Assembly: GCA_038209745.1 (NCBI GenBank)
Contig: JBBQXJ010000009.1
Span: forward strand, 1 to 64,000
Reading direction: 5' to 3'
DNA length: 64,000 bases
From: Verrucomicrobiota bacterium
GTDB taxonomy: Bacteria; Verrucomicrobiota; Verrucomicrobiia; Limisphaerales; CANJSG01
Shown here one piece after another: positions 6,356 through 63,897 of this stretch. A program made the translations under genes and the position numbers. Numbering within the stretch: position 1 is the stretch's first letter; each line of letters begins with the position of its first letter. The notes below the pieces were generated by a model. It saw nothing but the letters and a program-made list of their open reading frames with translations, was not told where the DNA came from and searched no databases.

Positions 6356-6498
6356 CGCCGTCCCGGCCCGGAGTCGTTCCCGACCGCTGTTCGGTGTCGG
6401 AGGGTCGACCTCCGCTCGTGGAACTGTGGAACTTGGGATCTTTGTCTCGTGCGTCTGCTCTCTTCCCTTCTCCGACTGCCTGACCTTAGCCTCCCGAC

Positions 6499-9275: not shown

Positions 9276-9477
9276 CACCGTCTCTTCGCTCAACCATCCG
9301 CCGCTCTTCGAGCACCCGTCAGGACGACCATGGCCGCATCGATGCGGTTCACGAGGGCGGAATCCCTCTCGGCTCGACCTCCGAATCGAGGCGATCCACT
9401 TGTCAGAAAAAGCAAACGACCTGGATGAACCTTCGCCGCATTGGACAGGCGGCCGGGAATGAGGATGATCGCGCCGC

Positions 9478-33565: not shown

Positions 33566-33646
33566 GAGCCAACTGCCTGCATCCACGGCGGAGGCCGGGG
33601 TTTTCCCGACTGGAAATGTGGTCATCCTTCTGCAACTTTTACCCCC

Positions 33647-36753: not shown

Positions 36754-36887
36754 GCATCGATGAAGAAGTTTCCCCCAGTCTCAGGAAATGAGGCCATCGC
36801 GTCGACTCCGCAGGTGGGACCGCGTGGGCCGCCACGCGACGAACCGCAGTTGTCCCGGACCGGGTTTCCGCTAGGCTGCGCGCCGAC

Positions 36888-38720: not shown

Positions 38721-38727
38721 CCTGCGA

Positions 38728-38850
38728 AAAGTGCGAAGCCCAAAGGCCAAAGGCCGAAAGTCCCACCAACAAAAATGCCGACCCGGACTCCGTCTCCGGG
38801 ATTCTAGCTTTGGTTTTGCGCCGGGCTTTGGCCTCCGCGCTCCGGACTTT
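38728..38850. repeat. 7-bp periodic inverted repeat between convergent genes
   Basis: AAAGTGC GAAGCCC AAAGGCC AAAGGCC GAAAGTCC ... TAGCTTT..GGGCTTT GGCCTCC GCGCTCC GGACTTT. Confidence 0.6.
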
Positions 38851-46683: not shown

Positions 46684-46808
46684 AGTCTTCGGGGCCGAAC
46701 CTAACGGCGGCCGGGCGGAAGGCAAAAGCGGAATTCAAAAACGACGCACGAAGGCCACCAGCGGAACCTCGATGGAGACACGACCGCAACGCCCGGCTTC
46801 GCCCTCCC

Positions 46809-47132
46809 TCAGTATCTGGGCGTGGTCGGATCGGCCTCCAGCGACCACCGATCGATCCCGCCGGTGAGATTGAGCAGCTTGGCGAAACCCATCTGCCGCA
46901 GCAGCCCGATGGCATGCAGGCTCCGCACGCCATGGTGGCAATAGACGACCACTTCCGCGTCTTTCCACGCCTCGATCTCGGCGGCCCGATCCATCAATTC
47001 TCCCAGGGGAATCAAAGTGGATCCAGGCAGGGCGGCCAGGGCGTGTTCGTCCGGTTCCCTGACATCCAACAGGTGCGGCGGCGCCGAAATTTTGAGTCGT
47101 TCGGCCAATTGGGTCGGGGTCAGGCTGCTCAT
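46809..47132 (-). CDS. Rhodanese-like sulfurtransferase
   Basis: Start MSSLTP; LLDVREPDE, VYCHHGVRS, NLTGGIDRWS. Confidence 0.9.
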   Translation of the reverse strand: MSSLTPTQLAERLKISAPPHLLDVREPDEHALAALPGSTLIPLGELMDRAAEIEAWKDAEVVVYCHHGVRSLHAIGLLRQMGFAKLLNLTGGIDRWSLEADPTTPRY

Positions 47133-47223
47133 CGCGGAAGGGTGCCGCCAGAGCGGCCCCCGGGCAATGCATCGATGCTCGGCGCCCCCGAAACCCAAGT
47201 CCGGTGGACAGGGCGAACCAACG

Positions 47224-50200: not shown

Positions 50201-53200
50201 AGCACGGCGGTCAGAGACCGGTTGATGCCCGACAGGCTGCCGTAGTCCAGATAGGAGCCTTCCCAACTGACCCGAACCGGCGGTCCCTTGTGGGCAAGCG
50301 CCGCCTTTTCCAGAGCGCGGACGAACGGCGGCGTGACGACCGCCGGCCCATAGATGCACTCCATGAAAAGAGCCCCGGCCCGGCCCATTTCTCGGCGGCG
50401 GTCTTCGGGCAGTTCGTAGGCGGCACGCAGCGCACGCCGCACGTCCTCGACCCGCAGCAGCGGCAGGTCACGGCCCCGGTGATGGGGCTGATATTGGAGC
50501 ATCTCCTCGGTCATCGGACGCTTCAGAACGGGATCGACCGGGATGACCACCGTGCTCTCGCAATAGGGCAGCGCCGCTCCGTAGCCGTCGGGAATGACCG
50601 CGATCTTGCCGCGGACGAACGCCTCGCCCACCGGCGCGGTGAGGGTCGTGTCGGTCGAAACGTAGGCGTCGCAGGAATCGATCACCCGGCAGATGCCGGC
50701 CCGCGTTCCCAGATCCTCGTCGAGAATGATCGGCGTCGAGGAACCGGTCTTGGCCCGGAGCGACTCGATCAAATTTCGCAGGTCCCGCGCCGGCTGGCCG
50801 CTGACGGGATGCCATGATGGATAGTTGACCTTGAGGCAGAGCTCGACGTCGGGCGCGTCCTTGAACTCGGCCAGGAACGCCTCGATCAACGCATCCCAAC
50901 GGCGTCGCGGCTGGAACATCGCGACGCAGAGGAAGCGGAACTTCGCGCCCGTTTCTCGGGGCATGGGCGCGGGCAGCGCCGCATTTGCAATCCACGGATG
51001 CGGACACTTCAGGACCTGGATCTTGGCCTTGGGAACCCCGGCGGCGACGAAGCGTTCGGCCTCCTTGTCGGTCTGGAGCCAGAGCTGGTCCATCTCGTTG
51101 CAGACGGCGACCCATTCCGGAGGCGGCTTCAGCCCCTGGGCCGTGCCGTCGAAGGTCGTGAAAAGGATCCGGGCGCTGTTCGGCGGCAGCGAAACCTTCA
51201 GCCATTCCGGTGTCGCCACGTGGAAGAAGACCGCGACCACCGGCTGGGTCACGGGAGTCTTTTCCAGCGAACGCAACCACTCCAGATCGCAGTCGTCCAC
51301 TCCCTCTTCGACGCCGTCCACCGGCATGATCCGCAGCTTGATCCCCACCGCGCTCCAAGCGGCGGCGAGACAACGCGCGGCCACGCCGTAGCCGCTGCGG
51401 TTATAGAAGGGCGCGAACATGACCACGGTGGGACCGTCCGCCTTCGCCAGATTCATCGACGCGCCCACCGCTGTTTGCGCGGTCGGGGTGCGAAGACTCG
51501 GAGCCGCCAGCGTCGTTCTCATTTGCTCGACGACCCGGTCCGCCACTCCGGACCAGGCGCGGTCGCGCCGGATCGCGACGCCCGCACGCCGCCCGAGATC
51601 GGCCGCCTCGTCTCCGTTTTGCACGACGTGGCGCAGCCGTTCCTCCAAAGCCTTCTGGTCCACCTCCGCATGGACCCGTTCGCCGGTGACCCGCCAGTGG
51701 CCGACCACGGCCTGCTTCTGGGAGACGATCTTTGCCGGCACCAGATAGGCGTTCTCCGCCGACACGAATTCCCGCACGCCGCCGAAGTCCGTGGTGATCA
51801 CGGGCCGGCCGCAGGCCATCGCCTCCAGCGCGGCCAGGTTGAAGCTCGCCGTGCGGTGCGGCAGCACCAGGCAATCGCAGGCCACATAGAGCCCGGCCAG
51901 CTCCTGCTCCGACAACATCCGGGGAATGTATTCGATCTGCGGGCAGCGCGGATTGGCGATGCATTCGCCGATCATCTTCTCCAGATGCAGCCGGGCGTAG
52001 TAGTCCCCGCAATCCATGTCCTTCACCACCAGGCAGACGTCGTCCCGGTCTTTGAAGACCCGGAGGTAGGCCGCCAACAGGACATCGAATCCTCGGCGGC
52101 GGGAGGTCTCGCCGACGAACAGGAACTTGAACCGCTTCCCGGTTTTCAAGGGAAAGGGAGCGGCCTCGGGATGAAAAACCTTCGGATCGACCCCCATCGG
52201 CACTACCGCCAACCGGGCCGCGTCCACTCCGCCGGCCAGGAACTGGTCGCGGACGAATCCACTGGGCACCCAGACACGGTCGACCCCTTCGTTGATCGGC
52301 CGGACCCAGTCGGTCGGGATCGGCCCCGACCACCAGGAGCTTCCGAGGATCTGCCGCTTGGCGGCGAGTTCGTTGAAAACCGGATGCCAGCGACAGGACA
52401 CGTTCACATCCATCCCGCCCGGGAGTGGCTGGTGAAACCTCGACGCCAACGTGCGGAATCCGGGGGACGCGGCCAGGTCCAGCTCCTCGATGTGGAACGG
52501 ACCGTTCCCCGGCGTCAGGGAGACATGGTGTCCCCGCCGGACCAGTTCCAGCCCGACCTCGCGGTTCCATTTCGGAATCTTGCCATGGAACAGCTGGAGG
52601 CCGCCCCAGTGGATGTTCAGCGCCTTCTCCGGAGACGCCGGTTCCAAGGAACCGCCGGCCACCACTTCCACGACCGGACGCCGGGTTTCAGCCTGCGCTT
52701 TGCGGATGAGATCGATCATCGCGGGAGCCGTCGCCTCGTAGGAATACCGCTCGCGCATGTAGTCCATCGCTCCGCCGACCATCTGCTTGCGCTCCTCCGG
52801 GCCCAGGGCAAAAACACGCCTCAAAGCCCTGCGCATCTCCGGCACTTCGAGCGTGGCAAAGGTCGCCCCCTTCTGGTGCGGCATGTATTCGGCCATCTCG
52901 GCCGTGATCGCCACGCGACCGGAGCCGTTGGGCACGACGACGGCCTGCGGCGGCAAGTCCACGCCCCAACCGTCGGTGATGATCACGGGAAGATTGCGCA
53001 CCATCGCCTCGGTCACCGGCGCGGTATGGGTCGTGTCCGGAGACACGTAGGCATGGCATTGGTCGATCAGCCGGGCCAACTCCTTCCGCGTGCCGAGCGC
53101 TTCATCGATGACGACGCTGGCCTTGGAGGACGTTTCCCGGCGGAGCCGTTCGACCAGGGCTTCAAGATCCTTCTTGGGCTTGCCGGGCACCGGGTGCCAC

Positions 53201-53853
53201 GAGGGATAGCTCATCTTCAAATAGAGCTCCGCCTCACGGGCCCCGCGGAACTCCTCGAAGAACGCCCGGATGAGAACGTCGAGCCGGCGACGCGGGAGAA
53301 AGAGGGAGATGTGCAGGAAACGGAACGCCTGGCCCTCGCGGGGCATGGTTTCCGCCAAGGGACCGAGCCTCGAGTTGTCGATCCATTCGTGGGCCCAGTT
53401 GAAGAAGTGGATGCGCTCCGGATCCAGGCCGCCCCGGATCCAAGCGGTCTTCTCCGTCTGGTTCGCCACCCAGACCTGGTCCATCTCGTTGCCGATGAAA
53501 ATCAGCCTCGACGGAGGCGTGGCCGCATCGGCGCTGCTGTCGAACGTGGTCAACAGGATCCGCCGGCTCGGCTCGGGCAGCGGCAGCTTCGGCCACAAAT
53601 AGGTGGGAACATAGGCGAAGATCGCCGTCACCGGTCCGACCACCGGCGTGAACTTGAGCGACTGCAGCAGGTGGAGATCGACGTCGTCCAGGTCGCCCGA
53701 TGCCTTGGGGTCGTTGCAGTCCACCGGCACGATCCGGACATTGACCCCGGCGAGGTGCAGTCCCATCGCGGTGCCCCGGGCCAGAACCCCGAAACCCGAG
53801 CGCGCGAAGAACGGACCGTAGACGATGACGGTTCCAGGAAATGGGGGATTCAT
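47224..53853 (-). CDS. 2209-aa multi-domain glycosyltransferase (4 x GT4-like + TPR + GT2 + TPR), probable flagellin glycosyltransferase
   Basis: Four GT-B-like modules incl. PYRGEGFGLPVLEAMACG; GT2 LTVCLIAKNEE..VVDTGSTDRT..LVLDADE; helical TPR-like repeats. Confidence 0.88.
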   Translation of the reverse strand: MNPPFPGTVIVYGPFFARSGFGVLARGTAMGLHLAGVNVRIVPVDCNDPKASGDLDDVDLHLLQSLKFTPVVGPVTAIFAYVPTYLWPKLPLPEPSRRILLTTFDSSADAATPPSRLIFIGNEMDQVWVANQTEKTAWIRGGLDPERIHFFNWAHEWIDNSRLGPLAETMPREGQAFRFLHISLFLPRRRLDVLIRAFFEEFRGAREAELYLKMSYPSWHPVPGKPKKDLEALVERLRRETSSKASVVIDEALGTRKELARLIDQCHAYVSPDTTHTAPVTEAMVRNLPVIITDGWGVDLPPQAVVVPNGSGRVAITAEMAEYMPHQKGATFATLEVPEMRRALRRVFALGPEERKQMVGGAMDYMRERYSYEATAPAMIDLIRKAQAETRRPVVEVVAGGSLEPASPEKALNIHWGGLQLFHGKIPKWNREVGLELVRRGHHVSLTPGNGPFHIEELDLAASPGFRTLASRFHQPLPGGMDVNVSCRWHPVFNELAAKRQILGSSWWSGPIPTDWVRPINEGVDRVWVPSGFVRDQFLAGGVDAARLAVVPMGVDPKVFHPEAAPFPLKTGKRFKFLFVGETSRRRGFDVLLAAYLRVFKDRDDVCLVVKDMDCGDYYARLHLEKMIGECIANPRCPQIEYIPRMLSEQELAGLYVACDCLVLPHRTASFNLAALEAMACGRPVITTDFGGVREFVSAENAYLVPAKIVSQKQAVVGHWRVTGERVHAEVDQKALEERLRHVVQNGDEAADLGRRAGVAIRRDRAWSGVADRVVEQMRTTLAAPSLRTPTAQTAVGASMNLAKADGPTVVMFAPFYNRSGYGVAARCLAAAWSAVGIKLRIMPVDGVEEGVDDCDLEWLRSLEKTPVTQPVVAVFFHVATPEWLKVSLPPNSARILFTTFDGTAQGLKPPPEWVAVCNEMDQLWLQTDKEAERFVAAGVPKAKIQVLKCPHPWIANAALPAPMPRETGAKFRFLCVAMFQPRRRWDALIEAFLAEFKDAPDVELCLKVNYPSWHPVSGQPARDLRNLIESLRAKTGSSTPIILDEDLGTRAGICRVIDSCDAYVSTDTTLTAPVGEAFVRGKIAVIPDGYGAALPYCESTVVIPVDPVLKRPMTEEMLQYQPHHRGRDLPLLRVEDVRRALRAAYELPEDRRREMGRAGALFMECIYGPAVVTPPFVRALEKAALAHKGPPVRVSWEGSYLDYGSLSGINRSLTAVLAQRPEIALFRVGSAALQGTPAKDAGLQALSKELRPKAANDVRITVRHQWPPDWSRPKTGALVVIQPWEFGSLPKEWAEASRHVDEFWVPSNHVRRVYVDSGVAPHKVVVVPNAVDVTAYHPGATPLPLATRKKTKLLFVGGTIGRKGPDVLLKGYLRAFTAADDVCLVIKDFGGASVYQGMTFSHEIEAARQQPDAPEILYLDQEMAPEDMPGLYAACDCLVHPYRGEGFGLPVLEAMACGLPVVVTRGGATDDFVTEECGWLLRAQKRMLGDAVGKMPLVGNGWWLEPDVDDLVRILKTVVARPDEARARGIAGAAVARKKYSWEQMAGRVVDRIRVLAARPLPKTGPEKRLVLSKAAWVGHIGDARDAIRSKKLRKAWELVSAAIAARPFHPEGWLLLGQIADEAGDVGLARRCAARGVTLVPDWKPVQQFAQSLEKRSGKQTLDWPLPVVSDKPRLTVCLIAKNEERFLGQCLASVKDLADEIVVVDTGSTDRTVEIARSFGAKLGYFEWSHDFSAARNAALELATGDWILVLDADEELMPEHKATIHAEMAEAGTMAWRLPLINVGKEADGVSHVPRLFRNAPALFYVGRVHEQVFTSIEVRRAEWGLDNKLGKTRLLHHGYTEELTRDRNKVERNLRLLEEAMKEIPGDANLTFNHGLELVRSGKLEAGLVRYSEAAELLGAQAPDQIVPELREVILTQWLAILKDAGRFEDLLAIRHQPLMAKGPLSPSMHYMLGFAALRTGDLELSVRELEACLAARDVPGLTPMHRDLQTCAPEHCLALARVAAKQPAAARDAFALALQRSPGAKPVTMDFARFEAGEGDYGRALTLIYEVVQTSPDDVAAWRLGAAIALNRPEVLEVALDWTGSAREQHPDDEELKARRAEALLLAGRPAEALPLFAALGTETSASNRAAWLVCRWVAVDGFRPSPADVADLNQAFLQWYRRLVDWNSAEVVQSLNARMDDIARVLPGAASFLQSVLADLGA

Positions 53854-53871
53854 TGGGGAATCAGCGTGGTT

Positions 53872-55095
53872 TCAATCTAGCTTGTAAAGCGTCACCACGG
53901 CGTTCGGCAGCCGGAGGCTCCCGGTGATCGCCTGGTGGATCGCCTTCTGCGCGGGTCGTGAGGAGATGAGAATGGTTCCTTCCATGCCGGCCACGTCGGC
54001 CGGTTTGATGATCGGGAGATCGCGCAAGGTCTTGCCCTGGTAGCGCGGGTTGGAGTCCACCACGGCCACAAGCTTCCCTTCGGCCAAGCGACTCGTCGCC
54101 AGCAGCCGCAAAGTATGGCTGCCCGCGCCCCAGACGATGACCGGGCGACCGCTCTCGACCAGTGCGTCGATCGCCGGTTGGACCGCGTCGTTGTCGCGGC
54201 GGGAGTTGGCGACGTAGCGGGCCAGTCCGTCGGCGGTATCGGTGTCCTTCTCCCAGGGCAGCGCCGCGCCGCCCGCCACCAGCTCGAAGGCACCATGCAG
54301 CACCGGCGTGACCGTGTTGGCGCTGCAACGCTGCATCCCCTGTTCCGTGAACAGGGTCCTGAAGCCGAAGCGCGCCATCAGGTTCGAGATCGTTCTGGGT
54401 CCGAAATAGTTGATGTGCTCCATGCTGAACTCCTGGAACGGAGCGTCGTCGCCGGTGTCATACCGGCTCGCATCGGGCACGGTGACGAAGATCCGGCCCC
54501 CGGGCCGAAGCATGGACGTCATCTTCTCCAAGGCCGCCGACAGGTCGCGGATGTGCTCCATCACGCCGATCAAGATCAACAGGTCCACGGGTCCGACATC
54601 GGACAGGTCGTCGGAGATTGCCCCGGTCTTCACCGGGACTCCGTAGGCCTCACCGGCGATCCGGGAACAGACGGGCGAAGGATCCAATCCCATGACCCCG
54701 CCGAAACCGGCCTGCTTCAGCTGCGAGAGCAGGAGACCCGTCGCGCAACCGACCTCGAAGATCTTCGTGTTCGAGTCGGGCATGAACCGTTTGATCTGCT
54801 CCACCGTGAGGCGGAAGCGGGCCAGGTCGAACTCCGACGGCCCCGCCACCGCACCGGGCTCGGAGGGCATCTCATACTTCGACATGTCGCGGTAGTAGCG
54901 GTCGAAGACTTCCTGCGACGGCAGCCGGTCGGCATAGCAATGCCCGCAGTCCGCGCAGGCCACGACGTCGTAGCCGCCGAACAGGCTGCCTTCGGACATC
55001 ATCGCGAAACGCTGGGGAAAGAGGAGGCGGGTTCCGGTGCCGCGGCAGACATCGCAACCGCGCGGAGGAAGGTTCAGTTCGGGGATCGGTTTCAT
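53872..55095 (-). CDS. Class I SAM methyltransferase resembling NDP-sugar C-methyltransferases
   Basis: Start MKPIPEL; CDVC..CADC Zn site, FEVGCATG, VMEH, EHINYF, C-terminal IVWGAGSH..VDSNPRYQG. Confidence 0.8.
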   Translation of the reverse strand: MKPIPELNLPPRGCDVCRGTGTRLLFPQRFAMMSEGSLFGGYDVVACADCGHCYADRLPSQEVFDRYYRDMSKYEMPSEPGAVAGPSEFDLARFRLTVEQIKRFMPDSNTKIFEVGCATGLLLSQLKQAGFGGVMGLDPSPVCSRIAGEAYGVPVKTGAISDDLSDVGPVDLLILIGVMEHIRDLSAALEKMTSMLRPGGRIFVTVPDASRYDTGDDAPFQEFSMEHINYFGPRTISNLMARFGFRTLFTEQGMQRCSANTVTPVLHGAFELVAGGAALPWEKDTDTADGLARYVANSRRDNDAVQPAIDALVESGRPVIVWGAGSHTLRLLATSRLAEGKLVAVVDSNPRYQGKTLRDLPIIKPADVAGMEGTILISSRPAQKAIHQAITGSLRLPNAVVTLYKLD

Positions 55096-55108
55096 CACGG
55101 TCTTCGGT

Positions 55109-56293
55109 TCAACGGGGGTCGCGGGCGGCGGGCACCGCATAGCAGACGGTGTCCCAGCACTCCTCGTTGTGGGGGCGCAGATACAGCCGGTAGTCGGCGC
55201 GAAGTTCCCGGAGCTGCTCGGGGATCCGCCAGAGGTGGTCCTGCTTGTGATAGGCGCTGATCGCCAGCACCGGGGCGTGTTCACGGATCGTCGCCGCCAC
55301 GCCCCTGAGCGCGTCCGGTTCGGCCCCCTCGATGTCCATCTTCAGATAGGTCGGCGTCGTCCCCACCAGCAACTCGTCCAGTCGGACGCATTGGATCTCA
55401 AGCGAACCCTCGGGATTCGCGGCGGAGGAAAGGCTGCCGTCGCCGTCGAAACGCAGCGGGCCGTCGAAGTCGGCGGCGCCGAGTTTCTCCAGCCGGATCT
55501 TGCCGCGCACTTCCGGGGCGTAGGCCGCCACCCGGTCGGCCATCTTGGCGAAATTGATCGGATCGGGTTCCAGCGCGACGATCTGCCGGAAGCAGGCTCC
55601 TTGGCGCTTCACGAAGGCGTCGATGCTGTCGCCGTCGAACGCGCCGCAGTCCACGAAGGTTTCGGCGTCCGCCAGACTGAAAAGATCGTCCGGGAAATAC
55701 TGCTCCTCGGCCACGGGCGACGGCAATCCGCCGAAATCCGCCTGCAACCGCCATCGGATCTGGGCCACGTATTCCTGGCGGGACCGCTCGTCCGCGAGAT
55801 CATGAAAGGTTCCGAGAACCGCGTCCCGTTGTGCGAGAACATGCTGGGGCAGTCCGAGACAGTAGTAGTCGAGGAAGACAGAGGGATGCTTCCAGAAGAG
55901 CACGACCGCCGGGACGACCCGGACACAGCCAAGCCCCTTGAGCTGGGCCTCGGTCCGATCAAAACGATGGGTTCCGCCGGCTCGCCATATGGTCACTACA
56001 AAGACCGCGTCATGACCGTGTCGCTTGGCGGCTTCGTCGGGTGAAAGCACTTCGACGCCGTCGATGCGAGAGCCCCATGCCGCCCGGTTGTTGTCGGCGA
56101 ACGCCACCGGCTCCACGCCCAAGCTGCGGAGGCCCTTGACGGTGCGTCGTCCCAGCCCCCCGCCGCCAAACAGCACGATCGCCCGCGAGGCGCCTCCGGC
56201 GACCCGATCAAAGGCGGACGCCGCCCGGACGGCGGCGGCATCGACGGATTCGGCCAGCAACGCGGAGAGTTCCCGTTCCAAGGACGCGCTCAT
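55109..56293 (-). CDS. FkbM-family methyltransferase with N-terminal Rossmann-like domain
   Basis: VLFGGGGLG..FADNN; FVDCGAFDGD, ALEPD, YLKMDIEGAE, LAISAYH. Confidence 0.88.
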   Translation of the reverse strand: MSASLERELSALLAESVDAAAVRAASAFDRVAGGASRAIVLFGGGGLGRRTVKGLRSLGVEPVAFADNNRAAWGSRIDGVEVLSPDEAAKRHGHDAVFVVTIWRAGGTHRFDRTEAQLKGLGCVRVVPAVVLFWKHPSVFLDYYCLGLPQHVLAQRDAVLGTFHDLADERSRQEYVAQIRWRLQADFGGLPSPVAEEQYFPDDLFSLADAETFVDCGAFDGDSIDAFVKRQGACFRQIVALEPDPINFAKMADRVAAYAPEVRGKIRLEKLGAADFDGPLRFDGDGSLSSAANPEGSLEIQCVRLDELLVGTTPTYLKMDIEGAEPDALRGVAATIREHAPVLAISAYHKQDHLWRIPEQLRELRADYRLYLRPHNEECWDTVCYAVPAARDPR

Positions 56294-58110
56294 TTCGCCG
56301 CCCCTTCTTCATCGAGGATCGGCACGATCATGTTCTGGCGGAATTCGTCCCGCTCAAGGAACGGCCACAGATCCTCCATCGGCTTCGAATACATTGAACC
56401 GTCTTTCCGTTGGCCCGAGGAGACCCTCGGCGACGTGGCCTGAGACGGGGTGATTTTCACGACGCAGACGACCGGGCGATCATGGGACAGGACGGCGCGG
56501 AGGCCGGCTTCCAGTTCGTCGTGGTTATGGATCACGCAGGACTCGATGCCGTAGGAACCGGCCACCTTCGTCATGTCCGGCAAGGTCAATCCGCTGGACG
56601 GTTCGCTGGCGACGTAGCGCCCGTTGAAATAGGCGTTCTGGCTTTGGCGGATGGAGCCGTAGCCGTTGTTGTCCAGGATGAAGAACTTGATGGGGAGATT
56701 GAGGCGGCGGACGACTTCCAGCTCCTGGATGTTCATGACGAAACCGCCGTCGCCGTCGAGGCAGACGGTCCTGCGCCCACCCGAGGCGACACAGCCGCCG
56801 ATGGCGGCCGGGATGCCGAAGCCCATCGGTCCGAGGCCCTCGGAATTGAAGACGCGCTGGCCCGCCTTGCAGCGGAACGCCTGCATCGTCGTCTCGCTGC
56901 AGGCGCCGGAGCTGCCCGGGATCAGGAGATCGTCGGGCTGCATCTGCCTGGAGAGTTCTTCGATCAGGACGTAGTTGCTCACCCCGTCGGTGATGGCGCG
57001 GTATTCGGGCAGGCAGACGGGGTATTTCAGCCGCCAATCATGGGCCTTGGCCAACCAACCGGAATAGTCGGGCAACGGAGCCCCGGCCGTGATCGCCTCG
57101 CGCAGCGCATCCATGAAGGCGCCCGCACCGGAGACGACCGGCACCGCGACCTCCATCTGGAGCTTCCCGATCTCGGCCGCGTCGATGTCCACGACCACCT
57201 TGTGCGCGCCCCGGGCGAAGTTGGGATGCACATAGGCCGTCTGGCCGAAATCCAACCGCGCACCGATGATGAGGATGAGGTCGGAGTTTTGCTGGGTGAA
57301 GTTGGCGCCCCGTTGGCCCACGCCGCCGGGACGGCCGACGTAGAGCGGATGGTCGTCCGCCACGTAGTCGAGGGCCTTCCAGCTGGTGAGCAGCGGCACC
57401 TTCAACACTTCGAGCAGGGCTCCGAACGATGCCAAGGCGCGGTCGAGGCGGATGCCGTTCCCCACGAGCAGGGCCGGGCGTTGTGACGACCGCAGGAGCG
57501 CCACCACCTTCGCGGCCGCAGCGCGGACGGCGGCGGAATCCACCGGTGCAGCAACCTCGGCGGGATCGAACGACCGCATGGCGGCTTCATCCACATCAGC
57601 GGCCTGCACATCGAGCGGGATGTCGATCCAGACCGGGCCGGGCCGGCCGTTGCGCGCGAGATACAGCGCCTTCTCCAGATGATAGCGGATGGTGGCCGGA
57701 TCCGTGACGATGACGGCGTATTTGGTGATCGGTTCGGCCATGCGGACGATGTCGATCTCCTGGAAACCCATCTGCCGAACGCCGCGTTCGCCCTTCATGT
57801 CGGCCCGCTTGACCTGGCCGGAAATGAAGAGGCACGGAGTCGAGTCGAGCCACGCCGCCGCGACACCGGTCAGCGCATTGGTGCCGCCGGGGCCCGTGGT
57901 CACGAGCGCGACACCGAGGTTGTTCGTGTATTGGCCGTAGGCATCGGCCGCGATGGCGGCGGCCTGTTCGTGGAGACTGCAGGTGTAGGCGAGGCCGGGA
58001 TGGCTCCCGAGAGAGTCGCACAGGTGCATGCAGCCGCCGCCGGGCAGCATGAAGACGTGCTTCACGCCCGTTTGCGCCACCTTGTCCATCACGTAGTCGG
58101 AGAGTTTCAT
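56290..58110 (-). CDS. ThDP-dependent enzyme, acetolactate-synthase fold, YerE-like carboligase
   Basis: HEQAAAIAA, VTTGPGGTNA, RQMGFQE, GRPGPVWIDIPLDVQ, GDGGFVMNIQEL..NNGYGSI; lies in a sugar cluster. Confidence 0.85.
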   Translation of the reverse strand: MKLSDYVMDKVAQTGVKHVFMLPGGGCMHLCDSLGSHPGLAYTCSLHEQAAAIAADAYGQYTNNLGVALVTTGPGGTNALTGVAAAWLDSTPCLFISGQVKRADMKGERGVRQMGFQEIDIVRMAEPITKYAVIVTDPATIRYHLEKALYLARNGRPGPVWIDIPLDVQAADVDEAAMRSFDPAEVAAPVDSAAVRAAAAKVVALLRSSQRPALLVGNGIRLDRALASFGALLEVLKVPLLTSWKALDYVADDHPLYVGRPGGVGQRGANFTQQNSDLILIIGARLDFGQTAYVHPNFARGAHKVVVDIDAAEIGKLQMEVAVPVVSGAGAFMDALREAITAGAPLPDYSGWLAKAHDWRLKYPVCLPEYRAITDGVSNYVLIEELSRQMQPDDLLIPGSSGACSETTMQAFRCKAGQRVFNSEGLGPMGFGIPAAIGGCVASGGRRTVCLDGDGGFVMNIQELEVVRRLNLPIKFFILDNNGYGSIRQSQNAYFNGRYVASEPSSGLTLPDMTKVAGSYGIESCVIHNHDELEAGLRAVLSHDRPVVCVVKITPSQATSPRVSSGQRKDGSMYSKPMEDLWPFLERDEFRQNMIVPILDEEGAAK

Positions 58111-58709
58111 TCGGAAGAGTTGCAGGTCAGTTCAGCGAGGATGCCGTCCACCGTGAGGTCGGAGGCGTTCCAGGGTTGGGGAAAAATGTAGGAACGAATG
58201 CCGAGCGCCCGGGCCTGGGAGACGTTGGCGGCGGAATCGTCGACGAAGAAATCAACCGGGCCGATCCGGGCCAGAACTTCATCCTTGGTCTTGGCGTAGC
58301 CGGGCAACTTCTCACCGTCTCGTGCGCTCGGCACGAAATGGAAGTGCCGGATCCAGCGGCCTAAATGCGTGAAGGCCCACGCCGACGCAGGAGCGACCGT
58401 TCCGACCGGCCGGGCGGTCAGGATGTGGTGCTCGAAGGCGCTCCCCCGCTCGTGGAACCATTCGAGGATCTGAGCGTTCGGAGCCATCGCCGCAGCAGCC
58501 CCGGACGAGCGGAAGCGGTCGAGGGATTCCAGATAGTCACCGAGCGTGCAACCAAGCACCTCGGCCGGGGGATTCACGACCAGCTCGCCATACGCAGTCG
58601 TGCAGTCGGGACGCTCCACCTTCCAGCCCTGTTCCAGCCAGGCTTCCATCAGCGGGTTCAGGACATCGTCGAGATCCCAGACGATCGTCTTTTTGGCGGG
58701 TGCGGGCAT
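58107..58709 (-). CDS. HAD-superfamily phosphatase (5'-nucleotidase-like)
   Basis: WDLDDVL (DxD), ILTAR, FVDDSAANV. Confidence 0.75.
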   Translation of the reverse strand: MPAPAKKTIVWDLDDVLNPLMEAWLEQGWKVERPDCTTAYGELVVNPPAEVLGCTLGDYLESLDRFRSSGAAAAMAPNAQILEWFHERGSAFEHHILTARPVGTVAPASAWAFTHLGRWIRHFHFVPSARDGEKLPGYAKTKDEVLARIGPVDFFVDDSAANVSQARALGIRSYIFPQPWNASDLTVDGILAELTCNSSE

Positions 58710-58718
58710 CGTTCGACC

Positions 58719-60227
58719 TCAGTCCATCCAGTAGGTCAGGAGGGTCTTGCGGGCGGCGTTCTTGGTGATCGACTCGTCCGAGTAGTAGGAGTCGTTCTTG
58801 AAATGCGTCGAGGATATCTCCTCGAAGATGACGCCGTGCTTGGTGGCCATGTGGTGCTTCACGGTGCGGTTCACCAGGATCAAGTCGCCGGACTTGTAGC
58901 TCTTCTCCTCCCCGTCGAGGGAGATCGTGATGTCGCCGTAGACGACGTAGAAGGTCTCTTCTTTCTGGCAGTGGGCGTGTTCCGGATGGCGCTGGCCGGG
59001 GAGCATGACGAGGACCTTCTTGCAGTATTCCCGGTTGATGAAGTTCAGGAGCACCGCGCCGTTCTCGTAGAACTTCTCGATCCCGTAGTGGTGGGAGATC
59101 TCCAGATCGCTGCGCGACGAAGGCAGGGTGATCTTGCTCTTCTTCAAGAGCTTCTTCACGTCGGTCAGGATGGAGCGAACGCGCGACTGGTGGTCCACCT
59201 GGTCGATGGCCGCCTCCTTGACGGCGCCGTTGGGCGCGATGTCCTCCTTCGCGGTGACCACGCGGTATTTGGAAAGGTGCTTCGCGAGGAGCTGGCCTCC
59301 TTCGCACGGCATGGCGAGGAAGGTGTTTTCATCCGTGATCCGTTCGCCGGCCTTGATCTTTCCCTTGGCGAAGACTCCGCGGCTCAACGCCTCCAACTGG
59401 GCGATCTCCGCCGGGGTTCCCGCCATGCGGTCGTCGGTCACGCCACACAGCTCGAAGCCTTTCCGGGCCTTCTCCAACCAGCGCCGCAGCTGCTCGGGGG
59501 TCGAGCTGTAGGCGTTGGCCGGATACGTGTCGGTGACCACCGCGACGTGCCGTTCGAAGACGGTCGCGCCCTTGCCGATGGCGGCCAGGACCACTTCGTT
59601 GTCGTCCGGATTCTCATGGGTCGAGAAGCCGACGCGATGGGTCGGATAGCGCAGCCGCATGAGCTCGATCTGGCCGAGCTGGAGGTCCCTTGTATCGGTC
59701 GGATACTGCGCCACGCAGTGCATCAGGGTGAGGTTCTTCTCGCGGTGCTCGAAGAAGCTGACCACGCGGTCGATCTCTTCCCAGGAGGCGCCTCCGGCGG
59801 AAGCGGTGATCGGGAGGCCCGCCTTCGAGATGCGTTCGAGCAACGGCCAGTCCATGAAGGAGCAGCTGCCGATCTTGAGGAAGTCGTAGCCGTGCTTCTC
59901 GATCGCGGCGACGGAGCGTTCGTCGAACGGGGTGCACATGGTCTTGAAGCCGCACGTCACCATCTCGGCCTTGAGCGCGAGGAACTCCTCCTCCGTCAGC
60001 CGCGTCTCGGAGAAGCGTTTGACGAACTTCACGTCCATCCGCTTCTGGAAGTCGGGATGGATGAAGGTGTCGAGGTGGCGGTATTGGAGCTTGAAGGCGA
60101 AGTCGAAGTCGAAGCCCTTAACGGCGTCGGCGAACTCGCGGATGATCCGCTTGCCGTGTTCCACGTCGCCCATGTGGTTGTTCGCCATTTCGAGGATGAA
60201 CAGGGGCCGGCCCCATTGGTTGTTCAT
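58719..60227 (-). CDS. NeuB-family PEP-dependent synthase + SAF + D-lyxose-isomerase-like cupin fusion
   Basis: Start MNNQWG; EMANNHMGD, KLQYR, CTPFDE, KIGSC, HCVAQYPT, GFSTHE, FERH; cupin YCKKVLVMLPGQRHPEHAHCQKEETF. Confidence 0.88.
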   Translation of the reverse strand: MNNQWGRPLFILEMANNHMGDVEHGKRIIREFADAVKGFDFDFAFKLQYRHLDTFIHPDFQKRMDVKFVKRFSETRLTEEEFLALKAEMVTCGFKTMCTPFDERSVAAIEKHGYDFLKIGSCSFMDWPLLERISKAGLPITASAGGASWEEIDRVVSFFEHREKNLTLMHCVAQYPTDTRDLQLGQIELMRLRYPTHRVGFSTHENPDDNEVVLAAIGKGATVFERHVAVVTDTYPANAYSSTPEQLRRWLEKARKGFELCGVTDDRMAGTPAEIAQLEALSRGVFAKGKIKAGERITDENTFLAMPCEGGQLLAKHLSKYRVVTAKEDIAPNGAVKEAAIDQVDHQSRVRSILTDVKKLLKKSKITLPSSRSDLEISHHYGIEKFYENGAVLLNFINREYCKKVLVMLPGQRHPEHAHCQKEETFYVVYGDITISLDGEEKSYKSGDLILVNRTVKHHMATKHGVIFEEISSTHFKNDSYYSDESITKNAARKTLLTYWMD

Positions 60228-61369
60228 AGGAGTGTCCTTGGGTTGAGTTGATGAAAACGGAGGGTTTTTGAGATCGCCGCGTCGAGAGACGTCCAGACAT
60301 CGAGTCCGAGCTCCCGGCGGGCGCGTGAAATGTCCGGCACGTAGCGCGCACCGGGACGTTGGGAATCGGCCGGATCGGCGATCTGCACCGCCGATCCGAC
60401 CGGGCTGTGGCGTGAAACACGTTCCGCAACTTCGGCGATGGTCAACGCCTCGTCGGAGCCGACGTTGTAGGTGCCCTTCGCATCCGGATGAAGCAGGAGG
60501 GTCCAGAGCCAGACGGCGAGATCGGCGGCATACAGATACGAGCGCCACGGGGTGCCGTCGCCATGGACCTGGAGGGTCCGGCCGGCAAGCGCGTCGCGGA
60601 GGAAATTGCCGATGGCGTAGTGCGCGTCCAACGCGAGATGCGGACCGACGAACGCGAAGCACCGGGCGATGCGGCAGTCGAGCGTGCCGGCCTGGGTGCG
60701 GGCGTTGCAGAGGAGCTCGGCCACGCGTTTGCCTTCGCCATAGGCGGACATCGGCACGCGGACGTCGGGCGCGCCGCAGTAGGATTCGGGAACCCGTTCC
60801 AGATCGACCGGCTGCGTCCCGTAGACCGCGCCGGAACTGGTGAGGAGAAAGCGTTCGGCCCCGACGGATTCGGCCAGGTCGAGCAGGCTCCGCGTCCCCT
60901 CGTAGGCGGTTTCCAAAACGGCCAGCGGATGATCGCGATTGGCGACAACGGTGGTCTCGGAAGCGGCGTGGATGAAATGGGAGATCCGGCGGGGAGCAGC
61001 GGAACCGAGCCGGGACTGGAGATCGCCCGAACGGAACGTCCGGACGTCACCGGCCACGAGGTCGACCGAACGGGCCTCGGCCAGAGCGGGAAACGCGGAG
61101 CGGAATCGTTCTGGATTTCGGGAAAGGACGATGAGGCGGGCCTCGAGGCCGAGCCGGCGATCCGCTTCGACAAAGCTCTCCAGCAGCCAGCGCCCAAAGA
61201 AACCCGTGCCCCCCGACACGAAAACCGTGCCGCCGCGAAAACTCTCCCAGAGCGACTCGGTGCGGGACACGATCTGCTCAAGGTCCCCGGCCAATGATGC
61301 CCGTCTCCCGTCGCGTGCAGGGCCGTCGGTGGCCGGAGGGATGGTTGATGTCTGTTGTGACGAGTCCAT
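60224..61369 (-). CDS. NAD-dependent epimerase/dehydratase (extended SDR)
   Basis: Start MDSSQQ; SGGTGFFG, TSSGAVYG, YGEGK, ARCFAFVGP, RSYLYAAD. Confidence 0.88.
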   Translation of the reverse strand: MDSSQQTSTIPPATDGPARDGRRASLAGDLEQIVSRTESLWESFRGGTVFVSGGTGFFGRWLLESFVEADRRLGLEARLIVLSRNPERFRSAFPALAEARSVDLVAGDVRTFRSGDLQSRLGSAAPRRISHFIHAASETTVVANRDHPLAVLETAYEGTRSLLDLAESVGAERFLLTSSGAVYGTQPVDLERVPESYCGAPDVRVPMSAYGEGKRVAELLCNARTQAGTLDCRIARCFAFVGPHLALDAHYAIGNFLRDALAGRTLQVHGDGTPWRSYLYAADLAVWLWTLLLHPDAKGTYNVGSDEALTIAEVAERVSRHSPVGSAVQIADPADSQRPGARYVPDISRARRELGLDVWTSLDAAISKTLRFHQLNPRTLL

Positions 61370-61422
61370 GTCGTATCCCCGATCCGTGGGAAGCGGCCGG
61401 CAAGGTCGCCGGATTGATCCGA

Positions 61423-62196
61423 TCACCAGACCTTCCAGGGTGCCTGCCCGCCCACGTACATCTTGTCCAGCATCTGCTGCTCCCGGTAGGTGTCCATGCA
61501 CTGCCAGAAGCCGTTGTGGAGGTAGGCGTGGACCTGGCCTTCGCCCGCCATCCGGACAAGCGGCGCCTGTTCCAAGATGGTGGAATCGTCGCCGAGATAG
61601 TCGCCGATGCCCTTGTTGAAAACGAAGTAGCCGCCGTTGATCAGCTGCTGGTTCTCGGCGGGCTTTTCCTTGAACGCCGTGACGCGGGTTCCGTCGACCA
61701 CGAGATCACCGAAACGTGCCGCCGGGCGGACTCCGGTGATGGTCGCGAGGCCGCCGTGGTTCCGGTGGAAATCGATGGTCTTGTTGATGTCCACATCGCA
61801 CACACCGTCGCCATAGGTGGCGAGGAAGGTGTCCGAATCCAGATAGGGCAGGACGCGCCGGATGCGACCGCCGGTCATCGTCTCCGCTCCGGTGTCGACG
61901 AGGGTGACCTTCCAGTCTTCTTCGGTGTGGTTGGTGTGGTATTTGACCTTGGGGGAGGCGCCGAGACAGAGGGTCACGTCGCTCGTGTTCCACTGGTAGT
62001 TGCGGAAGTAGTCCTTGATGACCTCGCCCTTGTAGCCGAGGCAGAGGATGAAGTCGCGATGCCCGTGGTGGGCATAGGTCTTCATGATGTGCCAGAGGAT
62101 CGGCCGGTTGCCGACGGGCACCATGGGCTTGGGGCGGTATTCGGTTTCTTCCCTCAACCGTGTGCCAAGACCACCGCATAGAATGACCACTTTCAT
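61423..62196 (-). CDS. rfbF: Glucose-1-phosphate cytidylyltransferase
   Basis: ILCGGLGTRLREET..PKPM, GYKGEVIKDYF, TMTGGR, TYGDG, INGGYFV, GFWQCMDT. Confidence 0.93.
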   Translation of the reverse strand: MKVVILCGGLGTRLREETEYRPKPMVPVGNRPILWHIMKTYAHHGHRDFILCLGYKGEVIKDYFRNYQWNTSDVTLCLGASPKVKYHTNHTEEDWKVTLVDTGAETMTGGRIRRVLPYLDSDTFLATYGDGVCDVDINKTIDFHRNHGGLATITGVRPAARFGDLVVDGTRVTAFKEKPAENQQLINGGYFVFNKGIGDYLGDDSTILEQAPLVRMAGEGQVHAYLHNGFWQCMDTYREQQMLDKMYVGGQAPWKVW

Positions 62197-62254
62197 TGTC
62201 CAACTTCCGTGTTTGTTGTCTGTCGCCCGGCGAAATCTTCCCGCCGGCGGCTTT

Positions 62255-62320
62255 CGCTCTTCTCTCCGGCAGGCGCGCTGCCGGAGAGAAGAGCGGCGGT
62301 CCCTTTACCCTGACCGCCGC
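62255..62320 (-). terminator. Two overlapping hairpins downstream of flagellin
   Basis: 18-bp perfect stem 62255-62272/62278-62295 and 9-bp stem 62293-62301/62312-62320, the latter followed on the mRNA by UCUUCUCU. Confidence 0.5.
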
Positions 62321-62357
62321 CCCAATCACCCCATACCAACCAAAGGACCTTGAAAGC

Positions 62358-63167
62358 TTACTGCAGGAGTCTCAACACGCTCTGCGGGAGCTGGTTCGCC
62401 TGGGCCAACATCGCGGTGCCGGCTTGGACGAGGATGTTGTAGCGCGCGTACTGCGTGCTCTCCTCGGCGACGTCCACGTCCTTGATCCTGGAACTGGCGG
62501 CGGTGAGGTTTTCCTTGGTCACGACGAGCTGCTCGGAGGTGTAGTTCAACCGGGACTGGTAGGCGCCGATGTTGGCGCGATCGGTGGCCAGTTGGTTGAT
62601 GGCGTTCTTGACCGTCGTCAGCGCGGAGGCAGCCGCACCGGTCGTGCTGATGTTCAGAGACGGGCTCAAGACGGCCGTGTAGCTGGCCGCGGCCATGTCG
62701 ATGCCCTTCATGCTGAACGTGCCGCCTTCGGAATCGATGGTGACATTGAGCGGCGTGGTGGAGAAGAGGCTGACGCCGTTGAAATCCTTGCTCGAAGTAT
62801 TGCCGACGTATTGGACGAGCTGGTCGAACTCGGCATTGTAGAGGCTCCGGTCGGAGTCGCTCTTGGTGACGTCCTGCGAAAGGATGGCCAGCTCGCTCAT
62901 GCGGTCGAAGGCCTTCGCGATCTTCTTCATGAACCCGTCCTGGACCTGGGTGAAGGAGATGGCGTTGCCGACGTTGGACTTGGCGGCGTCCAGTCGTGAA
63001 ACCTGGGCATCAAGACGCGAGGCGACAGCGAGGCCGGCGGCGTCATCGGCGGGGTTGACGATCTTGGAGCCCGAGCTGAGACGGGAGAGCGACTTGGAGA
63101 GCATCGCCTGGCTGTTTTGCAGGTTGGATGCGGCCGCTGTGGCCTGGATGTTGGTGTTGATGACCAT
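62358..63167 (-). CDS. fliC: Flagellin (minimal, 269 aa)
   Basis: MVINTN, RLSSGSKIVNPADDAAGLA, FNGVSL, RANIGAYQSRL, SRIKDVDVAEE, AMLAQAN..VLRLLQ. Confidence 0.97.
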   Translation of the reverse strand: MVINTNIQATAAASNLQNSQAMLSKSLSRLSSGSKIVNPADDAAGLAVASRLDAQVSRLDAAKSNVGNAISFTQVQDGFMKKIAKAFDRMSELAILSQDVTKSDSDRSLYNAEFDQLVQYVGNTSSKDFNGVSLFSTTPLNVTIDSEGGTFSMKGIDMAAASYTAVLSPSLNISTTGAAASALTTVKNAINQLATDRANIGAYQSRLNYTSEQLVVTKENLTAASSRIKDVDVAEESTQYARYNILVQAGTAMLAQANQLPQSVLRLLQ

Positions 63168-63212
63168 AACTACTTCCTGTGTTGGGGTTTACTCCGTTTT
63201 CGGCGCTTCCTT
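63168..63212 (-). promoter_or_regulatory. Putative CsrA-binding sites over the flagellin ribosome-binding site
   Basis: mRNA AACACAGGAAGUAGUU with GGA 7 nt before AUG; further ACGGA (63193-63197) and AAGGA (63208-63212) in the csrA 3' end. Confidence 0.55.
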
Positions 63213-63446
63213 CTTCGGTGGCGCGGGGTTGATGCGTGGGACCTTCGGCAGTTGGGGACGTCCCTGTGTCAGGGCCTCCTTGTTGCTGCGTTGAATCTCT
63301 TCGTAAATTTCTTGGCGGTGCACCGGCACATTGAGCGGAGCCTCGATGCCGAGCTTGACGATGTCTCCCTCGACGCGGACCACCTTCACGATGATGCGAC
63401 CGTCGATGACGATACATTCATTGATTTTCCGTGAGAGAATGAGCAT
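63189..63446 (-). CDS. csrA: Carbon storage regulator / translational repressor
   Basis: MLILSRKINECIVI..VKLGIEAP..VHRQEIYEEIQRSN with a C-terminal extension of FliW-regulated type. Confidence 0.95.
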   Translation of the reverse strand: MLILSRKINECIVIDGRIIVKVVRVEGDIVKLGIEAPLNVPVHRQEIYEEIQRSNKEALTQGRPQLPKVPRINPAPPKKEAPKTE

Positions 63447-63465
63447 AGATACAATCCCTCTTTGG

Positions 63466-63897
63466 TTATGCGGACAACGGAACGGGATGCCGCAGCGAGA
63501 ACTGCGCGGCGTTCATCGGAATGACCTGTTTGGCCACCATGGTGTGCCGGTTGAGCACGATGGGTCCCTTCAGATTGACGGTCGTGCCCGCTCCGCCGTG
63601 CAGGGTGACGATGTTGATGATGAGCGCATCGTCCGGGCTCTCCAGACCGAGGAAGGAAACATCGTCGTCGCTGAGCTCCGGGCTGTAGTCCGCTTCCAGG
63701 ACAAAGGGCGAGATGACCAGGAACGAGTGGTTCGGATCATCCAGCATCTGGAGCCAAAGGAACGGATCGTCCTCGGGGCTGGAGAGCAGCACGTATTGCT
63801 TGATCTCTTCGAACCCCAGCAATCCGAGCGGCATCCTGATGACGTTTTCTTTTCGGACTGTGAGCCACTGCTCATCTGTATGTGCGACCGTTTTCAT
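63466..63897 (-). CDS. fliW: Flagellar assembly factor FliW
   Basis: GLLGFE, PFLWLQ, FLVISPF, TVNLKGPIVLN..AKQVI; adjacent to csrA. Confidence 0.93.
   Translation of the reverse strand: MKTVAHTDEQWLTVRKENVIRMPLGLLGFEEIKQYVLLSSPEDDPFLWLQMLDDPNHSFLVISPFVLEADYSPELSDDDVSFLGLESPDDALIINIVTLHGGAGTTVNLKGPIVLNRHTMVAKQVIPMNAAQFSLRHPVPLSA

Follow-up and report, generated by a model that had tools for sequence, protein, structure and literature searches.

A flagellin-linked operon of a Verrucomicrobiota bacterium predicted to build a branched CDP-sugar with a NeuB-cupin fusion and a YerE/JanthE-like enzyme

What does a NeuB-type synthase do in an operon that also encodes a YerE-like enzyme? This question is raised by a high-GC stretch of 64,000 nt from a Verrucomicrobiota bacterium (assembly GCA_038209745.1, contig JBBQXJ010000009.1, positions 1 to 64,000), hereafter the window. 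On its minus strand, rfbF is followed by genes for a short-chain dehydrogenase/reductase (SDR), a fusion of a NeuB-type synthase with a cupin domain (NeuB-cupin), a phosphatase of the haloacid dehalogenase (HAD) superfamily, and an enzyme dependent on thiamine diphosphate (ThDP). An earlier note, made from the sequence, had described these five genes as a series, which is present as described, and had proposed that NeuB feeds a branched cytidine diphosphate (CDP) sugar rather than a nonulosonate, with the ThDP enzyme using the NeuB product as its acyl donor. The cassette combines acceptor-pathway genes with a YerE-like enzyme but contains no aldolase; instead, it encodes a synthase-isomerase fusion dependent on phosphoenolpyruvate (PEP), usually together with a phosphatase. 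On balance, the locus is probably the sugar-synthesis half of a flagellin glycosylation island, making a CDP-3,6-dideoxyhexose with a long hydroxylated branch at C4. The five core genes are as follows.

61423 to 62196, minus strand: rfbF, glucose-1-phosphate cytidylyltransferase, leading to CDP-glucose (TIGR02623, 349.4 bits; cut-off, 300.25)
60224 to 61369, minus strand: extended SDR of the epimerase/reductase type (PF01370, E 1.5e-34)
58719 to 60227, minus strand: NeuB-type synthase with a SAF-like domain and a cupin, 502 amino acids (aa) (PF03102, E 5.4e-39, 134.5 bits; PF07883)
58107 to 58709, minus strand: HAD-superfamily phosphatase with a nucleotidase-like cap (motifs and AlphaFold2 [AF2] fold)
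56290 to 58110, minus strand: YerE/JanthE-like carboligase dependent on ThDP and probably also on flavin adenine dinucleotide (FAD) (PF02776, PF00205, PF02775)

The open reading frame (ORF) of the SDR spans 60224 to 61501, with a likely start at 61369. The fusion was listed as an ORF at 58719 to 60662, and its real start is the ATG at 60227, which yields a protein of 502 aa, equal in length to its homologues. The 4-nt overlaps and the 9-nt gap that had been noted among the last four genes can be read directly at the junctions: the SDR stop and the NeuB start overlap in ATGA (4 nt), 9 nt separate the NeuB stop from the HAD start, and the HAD and ThDP genes overlap by 4 nt, as do the ThDP gene and the FkbM-family methyltransferase gene that follows it. 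The distance from rfbF to the SDR gene is only 53 nt.

To place this arrangement among other genomes, a scan with one genome per species was used. It gave 502 stretches encoding a relative of the fusion, including stretches from candidate phyla radiation (CPR) bacteria and archaea, and 80 loci (L numbers) were kept, 68 of which were informative, with at least 2.6 kb downstream of NeuB-cupin. A ThDP homologue with at least 40% identity lies on the same strand no more than 6.5 kb downstream of NeuB-cupin in 62 of the 68 loci, and in 52 of those 62 it comes directly after NeuB-cupin or after the HAD gene. Two loci (L021 and L030) carry the homologue elsewhere, and four (L004, L035, L036, and L050) have none at that identity. 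The co-occurrence of NeuB-cupin fusions with YerE-like genes, which the earlier note had put forward as a check, is thus borne out. The HAD gene is present in 38 of the 68 loci, and the median identity of the ThDP enzymes to that of the window is 57.7% in loci with the HAD gene and 46.4% in loci without it. Annotation of 37 neighbour genes from 12 loci gave the usual order as rfbF, rfbG (TIGR02622), rfbH (NF011936, 613-743 bits), sometimes an SDR gene, NeuB-cupin, HAD, and ThDP. The recurrence of this gene order in many phyla places the arrangement of the five genes far beyond chance.

Among solved structures, the ThDP enzyme ranks JanthE (8rph) highest with 404 bits, followed by PpYerE (5ahk, 302 bits) and Escherichia coli acetohydroxyacid synthase (AHAS) I (6lpi, 252 bits). 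Against the acetolactate synthase model TIGR00118 it scores 373 bits, under the cut-off of 538, and the true IlvB of the same genome, on contig C128, scores 664.8 bits and exceeds it. The alignment to JanthE extends over residues 2-596, including the C-terminal tail, and contains the motifs HEQ and GDG-X25-NN (GDGGF...DNN). A ThDP tree was built from 67 rows, consisting of the window protein, 61 cassette ThDP genes (tblastn matches over at least 88% of the query, free of stops), 4 paralogues with less than 40% identity, and the genome's own IlvB, and without YpYerE, ErwE, MMAR_2332, and MyGE. In it, the cassette ThDP genes group in a single clade (SH-aLRT, 99) at a long distance from the own IlvB, with the window protein as sister to a Lacunisphaera copy; the closest NeuB-cupin homologue also comes from a Lacunisphaera metagenome-assembled genome (81% identity). 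The L036 row that had been entered as a paralogue (38% identity) falls within the cassette clade. On the bit scores (404 and 302 versus 252) and on its separation from the own IlvB, the enzyme is nearer to YerE-like enzymes than to IlvB, as the earlier note had supposed. It is a candidate YerE/JanthE-like enzyme, predicted from sequence to join the acyl unit of a 2-keto acid to a CDP-sugar at its C4 ketone. JanthE is itself YerE-like and couples short to long 2-keto acids to ketones (PMC12188165).

The ThDP tree departs from taxonomy, with copies from Nostoc, Solibacteraceae, Planctomycetota, and Desulfomonilales beside those of Verrucomicrobiota and archaeal copies among bacterial ones, which points to frequent horizontal transfer of the cassette. 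It was also considered whether JanthE is an orthologue of the HAD-less proteobacterial class, and this was rejected, as the L053 protein scores 370 bits against 8rph, lower than the 404 bits of the window enzyme.

By its scores, the synthase half of the fusion is not a typical sialic acid synthase. Residues 6-345 score 377 bits against 3g8r, an uncharacterised SpsE-like protein, versus 68 bits against Neisseria meningitidis NeuB (NmNeuB). The AF2 model (predicted local distance difference test [pLDDT] score, 91.2) gave the same picture in Foldseek, with a target-based TM-score (TMt) of 0.94 for 3g8r versus 0.72 for NmNeuB and 0.71-0.78 for the range of NeuB and PseI structures. Scores are under the equivalog cut-offs for both NeuB (TIGR03569, 135.4 vs 399.65) and PseI (TIGR03586, 105.6 vs 340.25). 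In an alignment of 40 diverse homologues, the equivalents of NmNeuB K53, Q55, K129, H215, E234, and H236 show no variation, and 37 of the 40 sequences retain that of E25; we take these residues to be the metal and PEP ligands. The position of NmNeuB Glu134 is Ser in the fusion, and that of Arg314, presumably the Arg that binds N-acetylmannosamine (ManNAc), is Met, with I, M, F, or W across the family. Both replacements would fit a substrate other than ManNAc. The SAF label that the earlier note gave to the middle domain is supported only indirectly: PF08666 (SAF) is precomputed on four homologues, and the C-terminal domain of NmNeuB and 3g8r can be aligned to residues ~265-345, but PF08666 was not reported for the window protein itself in the Pfam search.

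The last 160 residues of the fusion, the cupin, match D-lyxose isomerases in sequence (2y0o, E 1.4e-7; 7nzo, E 1e-5), and 2y0o is also matched in fold (Foldseek TMt, 0.68; root mean square deviation, 2.4 Å). H419, E424, and H458 are invariant among the 40 homologues, position 414 is His in 39, and position 417 is His in 30 and Gln in 10. Pfam matches of the window cupin at E values up to 0.01 are Cupin_2 and DMSP_lyase and not PF07385, which is precomputed on several homologues. Judged by sequence and modelled fold, the domain is D-lyxose/D-mannose-isomerase-like, in agreement with its earlier reading as an isomerase.

The HAD-like protein has no Pfam or NCBIfam match (NT5C, E 0.14), and a phmmer search of PDB reached only E 0.31. 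Across 40 aligned homologues, the four HAD motifs (D12xD14, T98, K142, and D157/D158) are retained, and the AF2 model (pLDDT, 95.4) retrieved HAD phosphatases as all of its top 10 Foldseek matches, the best being 3bwv and human mitochondrial deoxyribonucleotidase (E 8e-9 to 5e-7). The earlier HAD assignment is therefore sound, and fold and motifs characterise the product as a predicted phosphatase. The SDR falls under the cut-off of all dehydratase and epimerase equivalogs (CDP 4,6-dehydratase, 26 bits vs 278). Its motifs are SSGAVYG and YGEGK, which presumably lack the Asp-Glu pair of 4,6-dehydratases, and the protein is by its sequence not predicted to be such a dehydratase. It is a candidate reductase of the branch carbonyl, with a YerF-like role.

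Enzymes that make CMP-sialic acid and CMP-Kdo (3-deoxy-D-manno-octulosonic acid) belong to the CTP_transf_3 family. The whole genomes (G numbers) behind 40 of the 80 loci were searched for this and other families; many contigs are short, and a gene on a different contig has no measured distance. No CTP_transf_3 match above the cut-off lies closer than 15 kb to NeuB-cupin in any of the 40 cassette genomes, and the smallest distances are 17, 39, and 43 kb. One match under the cut-off (G011, 19.6 bits) lies 3.2 kb upstream of NeuB-cupin, and four small cassette genomes have no CTP_transf_3 match whatsoever. The window's own genome has a single match, which is KdsB-like, on contig C5. The earlier note had suggested a comparison with neuA, and on this point the fusions occur without a neighbouring CMP-transferase.

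The acceptor side is linked to the cassette as well. The known acceptor of YerE, CDP-4-keto-3,6-dideoxyglucose, is made by RfbH. This enzyme was detected above its cut-off in 38 of the 40 cassette genomes and in none of 14 control genomes, with a match at E 1e-80 in 39 of the 40. It is encoded on the NeuB-cupin contig within ~12 kb in 35 genomes and elsewhere in four, and is absent in one; it is apart from the cassette in G001, G006, G012, and G013. Such linkage in 35 of 40 genomes would otherwise be hard to explain and therefore argues for a shared product. In the window's own genome, an rfbF2-rfbG-rfbH set is located at C30:31219-34700, and its genes share 59%, 63%, and 73% identity with their counterparts in the L007 cassette, so the acceptor can be made, but in trans. 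In loci L007 and L014, rfbF is separated from the cassette by rfbG and rfbH (L007:6261-8910; L014:7359-9899). At 61369-61423 of the window, these two genes are cleanly absent, and L016 lacks rfbF there too. It seems that the island sheds acceptor-pathway genes when a second copy exists elsewhere. The surroundings of the second copy (G000 contig C30:29000-46000, L097) encode a Wzy-like protein with tetratricopeptide repeats (TPR), the rfbF2-rfbG-rfbH set, RmlC-like and RmlD-like proteins, two family 2 glycosyltransferases (GT2), a GT4, and a methyltransferase, and this cluster probably directs a surface polysaccharide containing a 3,6-dideoxyhexose.

The core genes lie between flagellar and glycosyltransferase genes, and together they make up eleven features, all on the minus strand, that span 63897 to 47224. 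The six others are as follows.

63466 to 63897, minus strand: fliW, flagellin assembly factor and CsrA partner (PF02623 FliW, E 1.8e-34)
62358 to 63167, minus strand: short flagellin, 269 aa (Flagellin_N and Flagellin_C, E ~1e-27 each)
62197 to 62357, minus strand: structured spacer between flagellin and rfbF, 161 nt (RNA fold)
55109 to 56293, minus strand: FkbM-family methyltransferase (PF05050, E 2.5e-13; TIGR01444, 59 bits; cut-off, 37.7)
53872 to 55095, minus strand: class I methyltransferase carrying a CxxC...CxxC motif at the N terminus and a C-methyltransferase domain at the C terminus, a TylC3-like layout (PF13489, E 7.4e-23)
47224 to 53853, minus strand: 2209-aa glycosyltransferase with two GT4 domains, one GT2 domain, and C-terminal TPR repeats (Pfam)

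The sugar operon begins 161 nt past the flagellin gene, and the order fliW, flagellin, cassette, and giant glycosyltransferase recurs in L007, L014, L016, and L072, the giant proteins of which share 52-60% identity with that of the window over 1600-2200 residues. Homologues of fliW occupy the equivalent place in L002, L007, L016, and L072. Among the 40 cassette genomes, 18 have a Flagellin_N match, and 5 of these 18 (G010, G012, G013, G017, and G033) encode a flagellin no more than 30 kb from NeuB-cupin; the matches in G032, at 21 kb, are weak. The flagellin contains 54 Ser and Thr residues, 21 of them within central residues 120-190, and is presumed to be the glycosylation target, with the 2209-aa protein as the candidate flagellin glycosyltransferase. 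The methyltransferases are less widespread, with FkbM homologues in 8 and homologues of the second one in 16 of the 80 loci. PF08484 matches the second methyltransferase at E 4.9e-4, under its cut-off, and 55095 is its likely start.

Further observations concern the surroundings of these genes. The giant glycosyltransferase has an internal duplication, in which residues 806-1561 and residues 1-~800 match the same stretch of L007 (36% identity), and each repeat opens with a region without a Pfam family, before the GT4 domain. In L053 (Azonexus), two genes for FliB-type flagellin lysine N-methylases (5569-6813 and 8293-9543) are interleaved with rfbG, rfbH, and the NeuB-cupin cassette; by their annotation, they form a further link of the cassette to flagellin modification. 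The spacer at 62197-62357 folds with -78.4 kcal/mol (z, -4.35; 0 of 200 shuffles equally stable) and contains a perfect 17-bp hairpin without a U tract; the terminator scan left it uncalled. The spacer might serve in processing or stability, or as an attenuator placed between the flagellin gene and the sugar operon. A scan of 46800-63600 gave no signal, with 9 terminator-like sites versus 10.8 expected and 0 promoters. Past the giant glycosyltransferase lie housekeeping genes (Fe-S assembly, GNAT, CdsA, Dxr, RseP, and IspG), and past fliW lie genes for CheD, an HDOD protein, and CheB. Elsewhere in the window, two long ORFs on the minus strand (36750-38750 and 32513-34474; 666 and 653 aa) have no Pfam family and stand beside a gene (34654-36753) whose FAD_oxidored product carries a Golvesin domain at its C terminus.

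What the analysis establishes is the identity of the genes, their folds, the conservation of catalytic residues, and the conserved linkage; from these we infer every substrate of the pathway, the order of its cupin, NeuB, and HAD steps, and its flagellin target. RfbF would make CDP-glucose, which RfbG and RfbH, encoded on contig C30, would convert to CDP-4-keto-3,6-dideoxy-D-glucose. The cupin may turn a ketose into an aldose (D-xylulose into D-lyxose or D-fructose into D-mannose), free or phosphorylated, and the NeuB domain would condense PEP onto the aldose, yielding an 8- or 9-carbon 3-deoxy-2-ulosonic acid. The HAD phosphatase would remove phosphate, either from the ketose before isomerisation or later from the ulosonate. 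The YerE/JanthE-like enzyme would then decarboxylate the 2-keto acid and transfer its acyl unit to the C4 ketone of the CDP-sugar, so that the branch would begin with CO-CH2-CHOH, as the earlier note had predicted. The SDR would reduce the new carbonyl, the two methyltransferases would decorate the product, and the 2209-aa protein would move the sugar onto flagellin. The more specific proposal that the flagella carry a methylated 14- or 15-carbon sugar, with a C7 or C8 polyhydroxy chain grafted by the ThDP enzyme from a Kdo-like or KDN-like (2-keto-3-deoxynononic acid) precursor onto C4 of a 3,6-dideoxyhexose, is tentative and somewhat more doubtful. The NeuB-fed branched sugar of the earlier note is supported by all of its computational tests, namely, the placement of the ThDP enzyme, the linkage in 62 of 68 loci, and the lack of a neuA partner. 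The flagellin context, the loss of rfbG and rfbH from the island, and the likeness of the cupin to D-lyxose/D-mannose isomerases go beyond that note.

Several observations weigh against this pathway. The island lacks rfbG and rfbH, with only rfbF linked in the window, and no E3 reductase was found, as an E3-like query from L006 retrieved nothing in the own genome at E 1e-10. SDR homologues (identity of at least 35%) occur in only 26 of the 80 loci, so the pathway does not always include the SDR; the HAD gene is missing from 30 of the 68. D-lyxose isomerases work on free sugars, which is a poor fit with a phosphatase after NeuB, and for that reason the phosphatase may act before NeuB. In water, 3-deoxy-2-ulosonic acids are mostly cyclic hemiketals, which would leave little open-chain keto acid for the ThDP enzyme. 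The lack of any flagellin match in 22 of the 40 cassette genomes means that the target is not flagellin in general and that the cassette serves other glycans too. Lastly, PMC12188165 states that the physiological substrates of JanthE are unknown and that the enzyme takes pyruvate and simple keto acids in vitro, so the branch may be a short one.

The same genes could serve two separate sugars, an explanation that we consider unlikely. The ThDP enzyme would use pyruvate to make an acetyl-branched sugar of the yersiniose type, while NeuB-cupin and the HAD phosphatase would make a KDN-like or Kdo-like acid, to be activated elsewhere and transferred intact to flagellin. Phosphorylated sialic acid and KDN routes are known to pair NeuB with a HAD phosphatase, a layout that the operon resembles, and the KdsB-like gene on C5 could belong to such a route. 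Pyruvate is accepted by both JanthE (PMC12188165) and YerE (PMC9306805), and flagellins are reported to bear nonulosonic acids often (PMC7591256). However, YerE-like enzymes can also reject pyruvate, as ErwE does (PMC9306805), and the operon has no CMP-transferase, nor does any of the 40 genomes have one within 15 kb of NeuB-cupin, with four of them lacking any CTP_transf_3 match. The order NeuB-cupin, (HAD), ThDP is moreover fixed and often overlapping in 52 of the 68 loci, which speaks against two unrelated products.

It is quite improbable that the ThDP enzyme is a plain 2-keto-acid decarboxylase, which would turn the NeuB product into a chain-extended 2-deoxy-aldose that enters a glycan by another route, the CDP-sugar genes serving another residue. 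Members of the ThDP decarboxylase superfamily commonly decarboxylate without ligating, and the absence of rfbG and rfbH from the island would suit such a role, but the nearest characterised relatives are ketone-accepting carboligases, the single RfbH of each genome adjoins the cassette in 35 of 40, and the operon contains no kinase or nucleotidyltransferase for a free aldose. Least probable is that the cluster is a decaying remnant that lost rfbG and rfbH and no longer makes the branched sugar here. The comparison with L007 and L014, which keep both genes where the window has 53 nt between rfbF and the SDR gene, could be taken in this sense. However, all eight operon genes are full length, with end-to-end homologue matches and no stops, translational coupling is retained, the rfbG and rfbH on C30 are 63% and 73% identical to those of L007, and RfbH is likewise encoded away from the cassette in G001, G006, G012, and G013.

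The proposed route, in which NeuB feeds the ThDP enzyme, resembles published pathways in its logic and differs from them in its donor. In the scheme for erwiniose, caryophyllose, and gastriose, an aldolase provides a hydroxylated 2-keto acid, a YerE-like enzyme joins it to CDP-4-keto-3,6-dideoxyglucose, and a reductase finishes the branch (PMC9306805). ErwE, MMAR_2332, and MyGE graft such aldolase-made hydroxy-keto acids, and ErwE rejects pyruvate (PMC9306805). Grafting of a keto acid followed by reduction is therefore already published for these three sugars, and by analogy the NeuB module would replace the aldolase here. The systems of this 'unifying scheme' (ErwE/ErwF/ErwI/ErwJ, MMAR_2331/2332, and MyGE/MygI/MygF; Steitz et al. 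2022, PMC9306805) share with the cassette the grafting logic and the linkage to genes of the rfbF/G/H type. They differ in that their keto acid comes from a pyruvate aldolase, whereas in the cassette this part would fall to a NeuB-type synthase that depends on PEP and is fused to a sugar isomerase, usually accompanied by a HAD phosphatase, and in that their products are sugars of lipopolysaccharide or lipooligosaccharide (LPS/LOS; PMC9306805), whereas the cluster here lies in a flagellin island. The family of MygI is not named in the text or supplement of PMC9306805, and 'MygI', 'neuraminate', and 'sialic' have 0 occurrences in the supplement.

YerE/YerF of Yersinia pseudotuberculosis (yersiniose A) and PpYerE (5ahk) are alike in their three-domain ThDP/FAD type and in having acceptor genes in related loci. 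YerE uses pyruvate and forms a C2 branch, whereas the window enzyme is closer to JanthE (404 bits) than to PpYerE (302 bits) and is always paired with NeuB-cupin. JanthE of Janthinobacterium sp. HH01 (8rph, 8rpi, and 8rpj) is the best-scoring solved relative, but it has a CDG motif where the window enzyme has GDG, and its hotspots V121, Y268, P293, Y297, and K567 correspond to F, V, G, Y, and R. The NeuB, PseI, and LegI synthases and the KDN-9-phosphate synthase/phosphatase pair share the fold, the metal and PEP residues, and the adjoining HAD phosphatase with the cassette; unlike these synthases, the fusion is below the NeuB and PseI equivalog cut-offs, has a hydrophobic residue at the position of Arg314, carries a fused isomerase, and has no CMP-synthetase partner. 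Islands with a TPR glycosyltransferase, such as that of FlmG in Caulobacter (PMC7591256), likewise place sugar genes and a TPR glycosyltransferase beside flagellin genes. Known flagellin islands make pseudaminic or legionaminic acids or simple deoxy-sugars, whereas the sugar predicted here is ThDP-branched and the transferase is a giant of 2209 aa with three GT domains. No publication was found that joins YerE with NeuB, sialic acid synthase, cupins, or ulosonic acids, and a paper on the phylogeny of nonulosonic acid (NulO) synthases mentions neither a cupin nor a fusion (PMC8208679).

The cassette suggests a second, PEP-driven way to long side chains, beside that of the aldolases. To our knowledge, only few organisms are known to make caryophyllose, gastriose, and other sugars with long branches, and the ~500 species-level genomes with the cassette point to a large class of surface sugars that has so far been chemically unseen. 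A common annotation error also comes to light, in that these fusions, when labelled 'sialic acid synthase', probably mislead as to the presence of sialic-acid-like surface sugars. If the more specific proposal of a 14- or 15-carbon flagellar sugar is true, the NeuB family would gain a second major role, the supply of side chains, over some 500 bacterial and archaeal species, and flagellin would be a new target class for ThDP-branched sugars. The flagellar filament is probably where the present lineage displays the product, and flagellin, which is easily purified and weighed, would provide an experimental handle on it.

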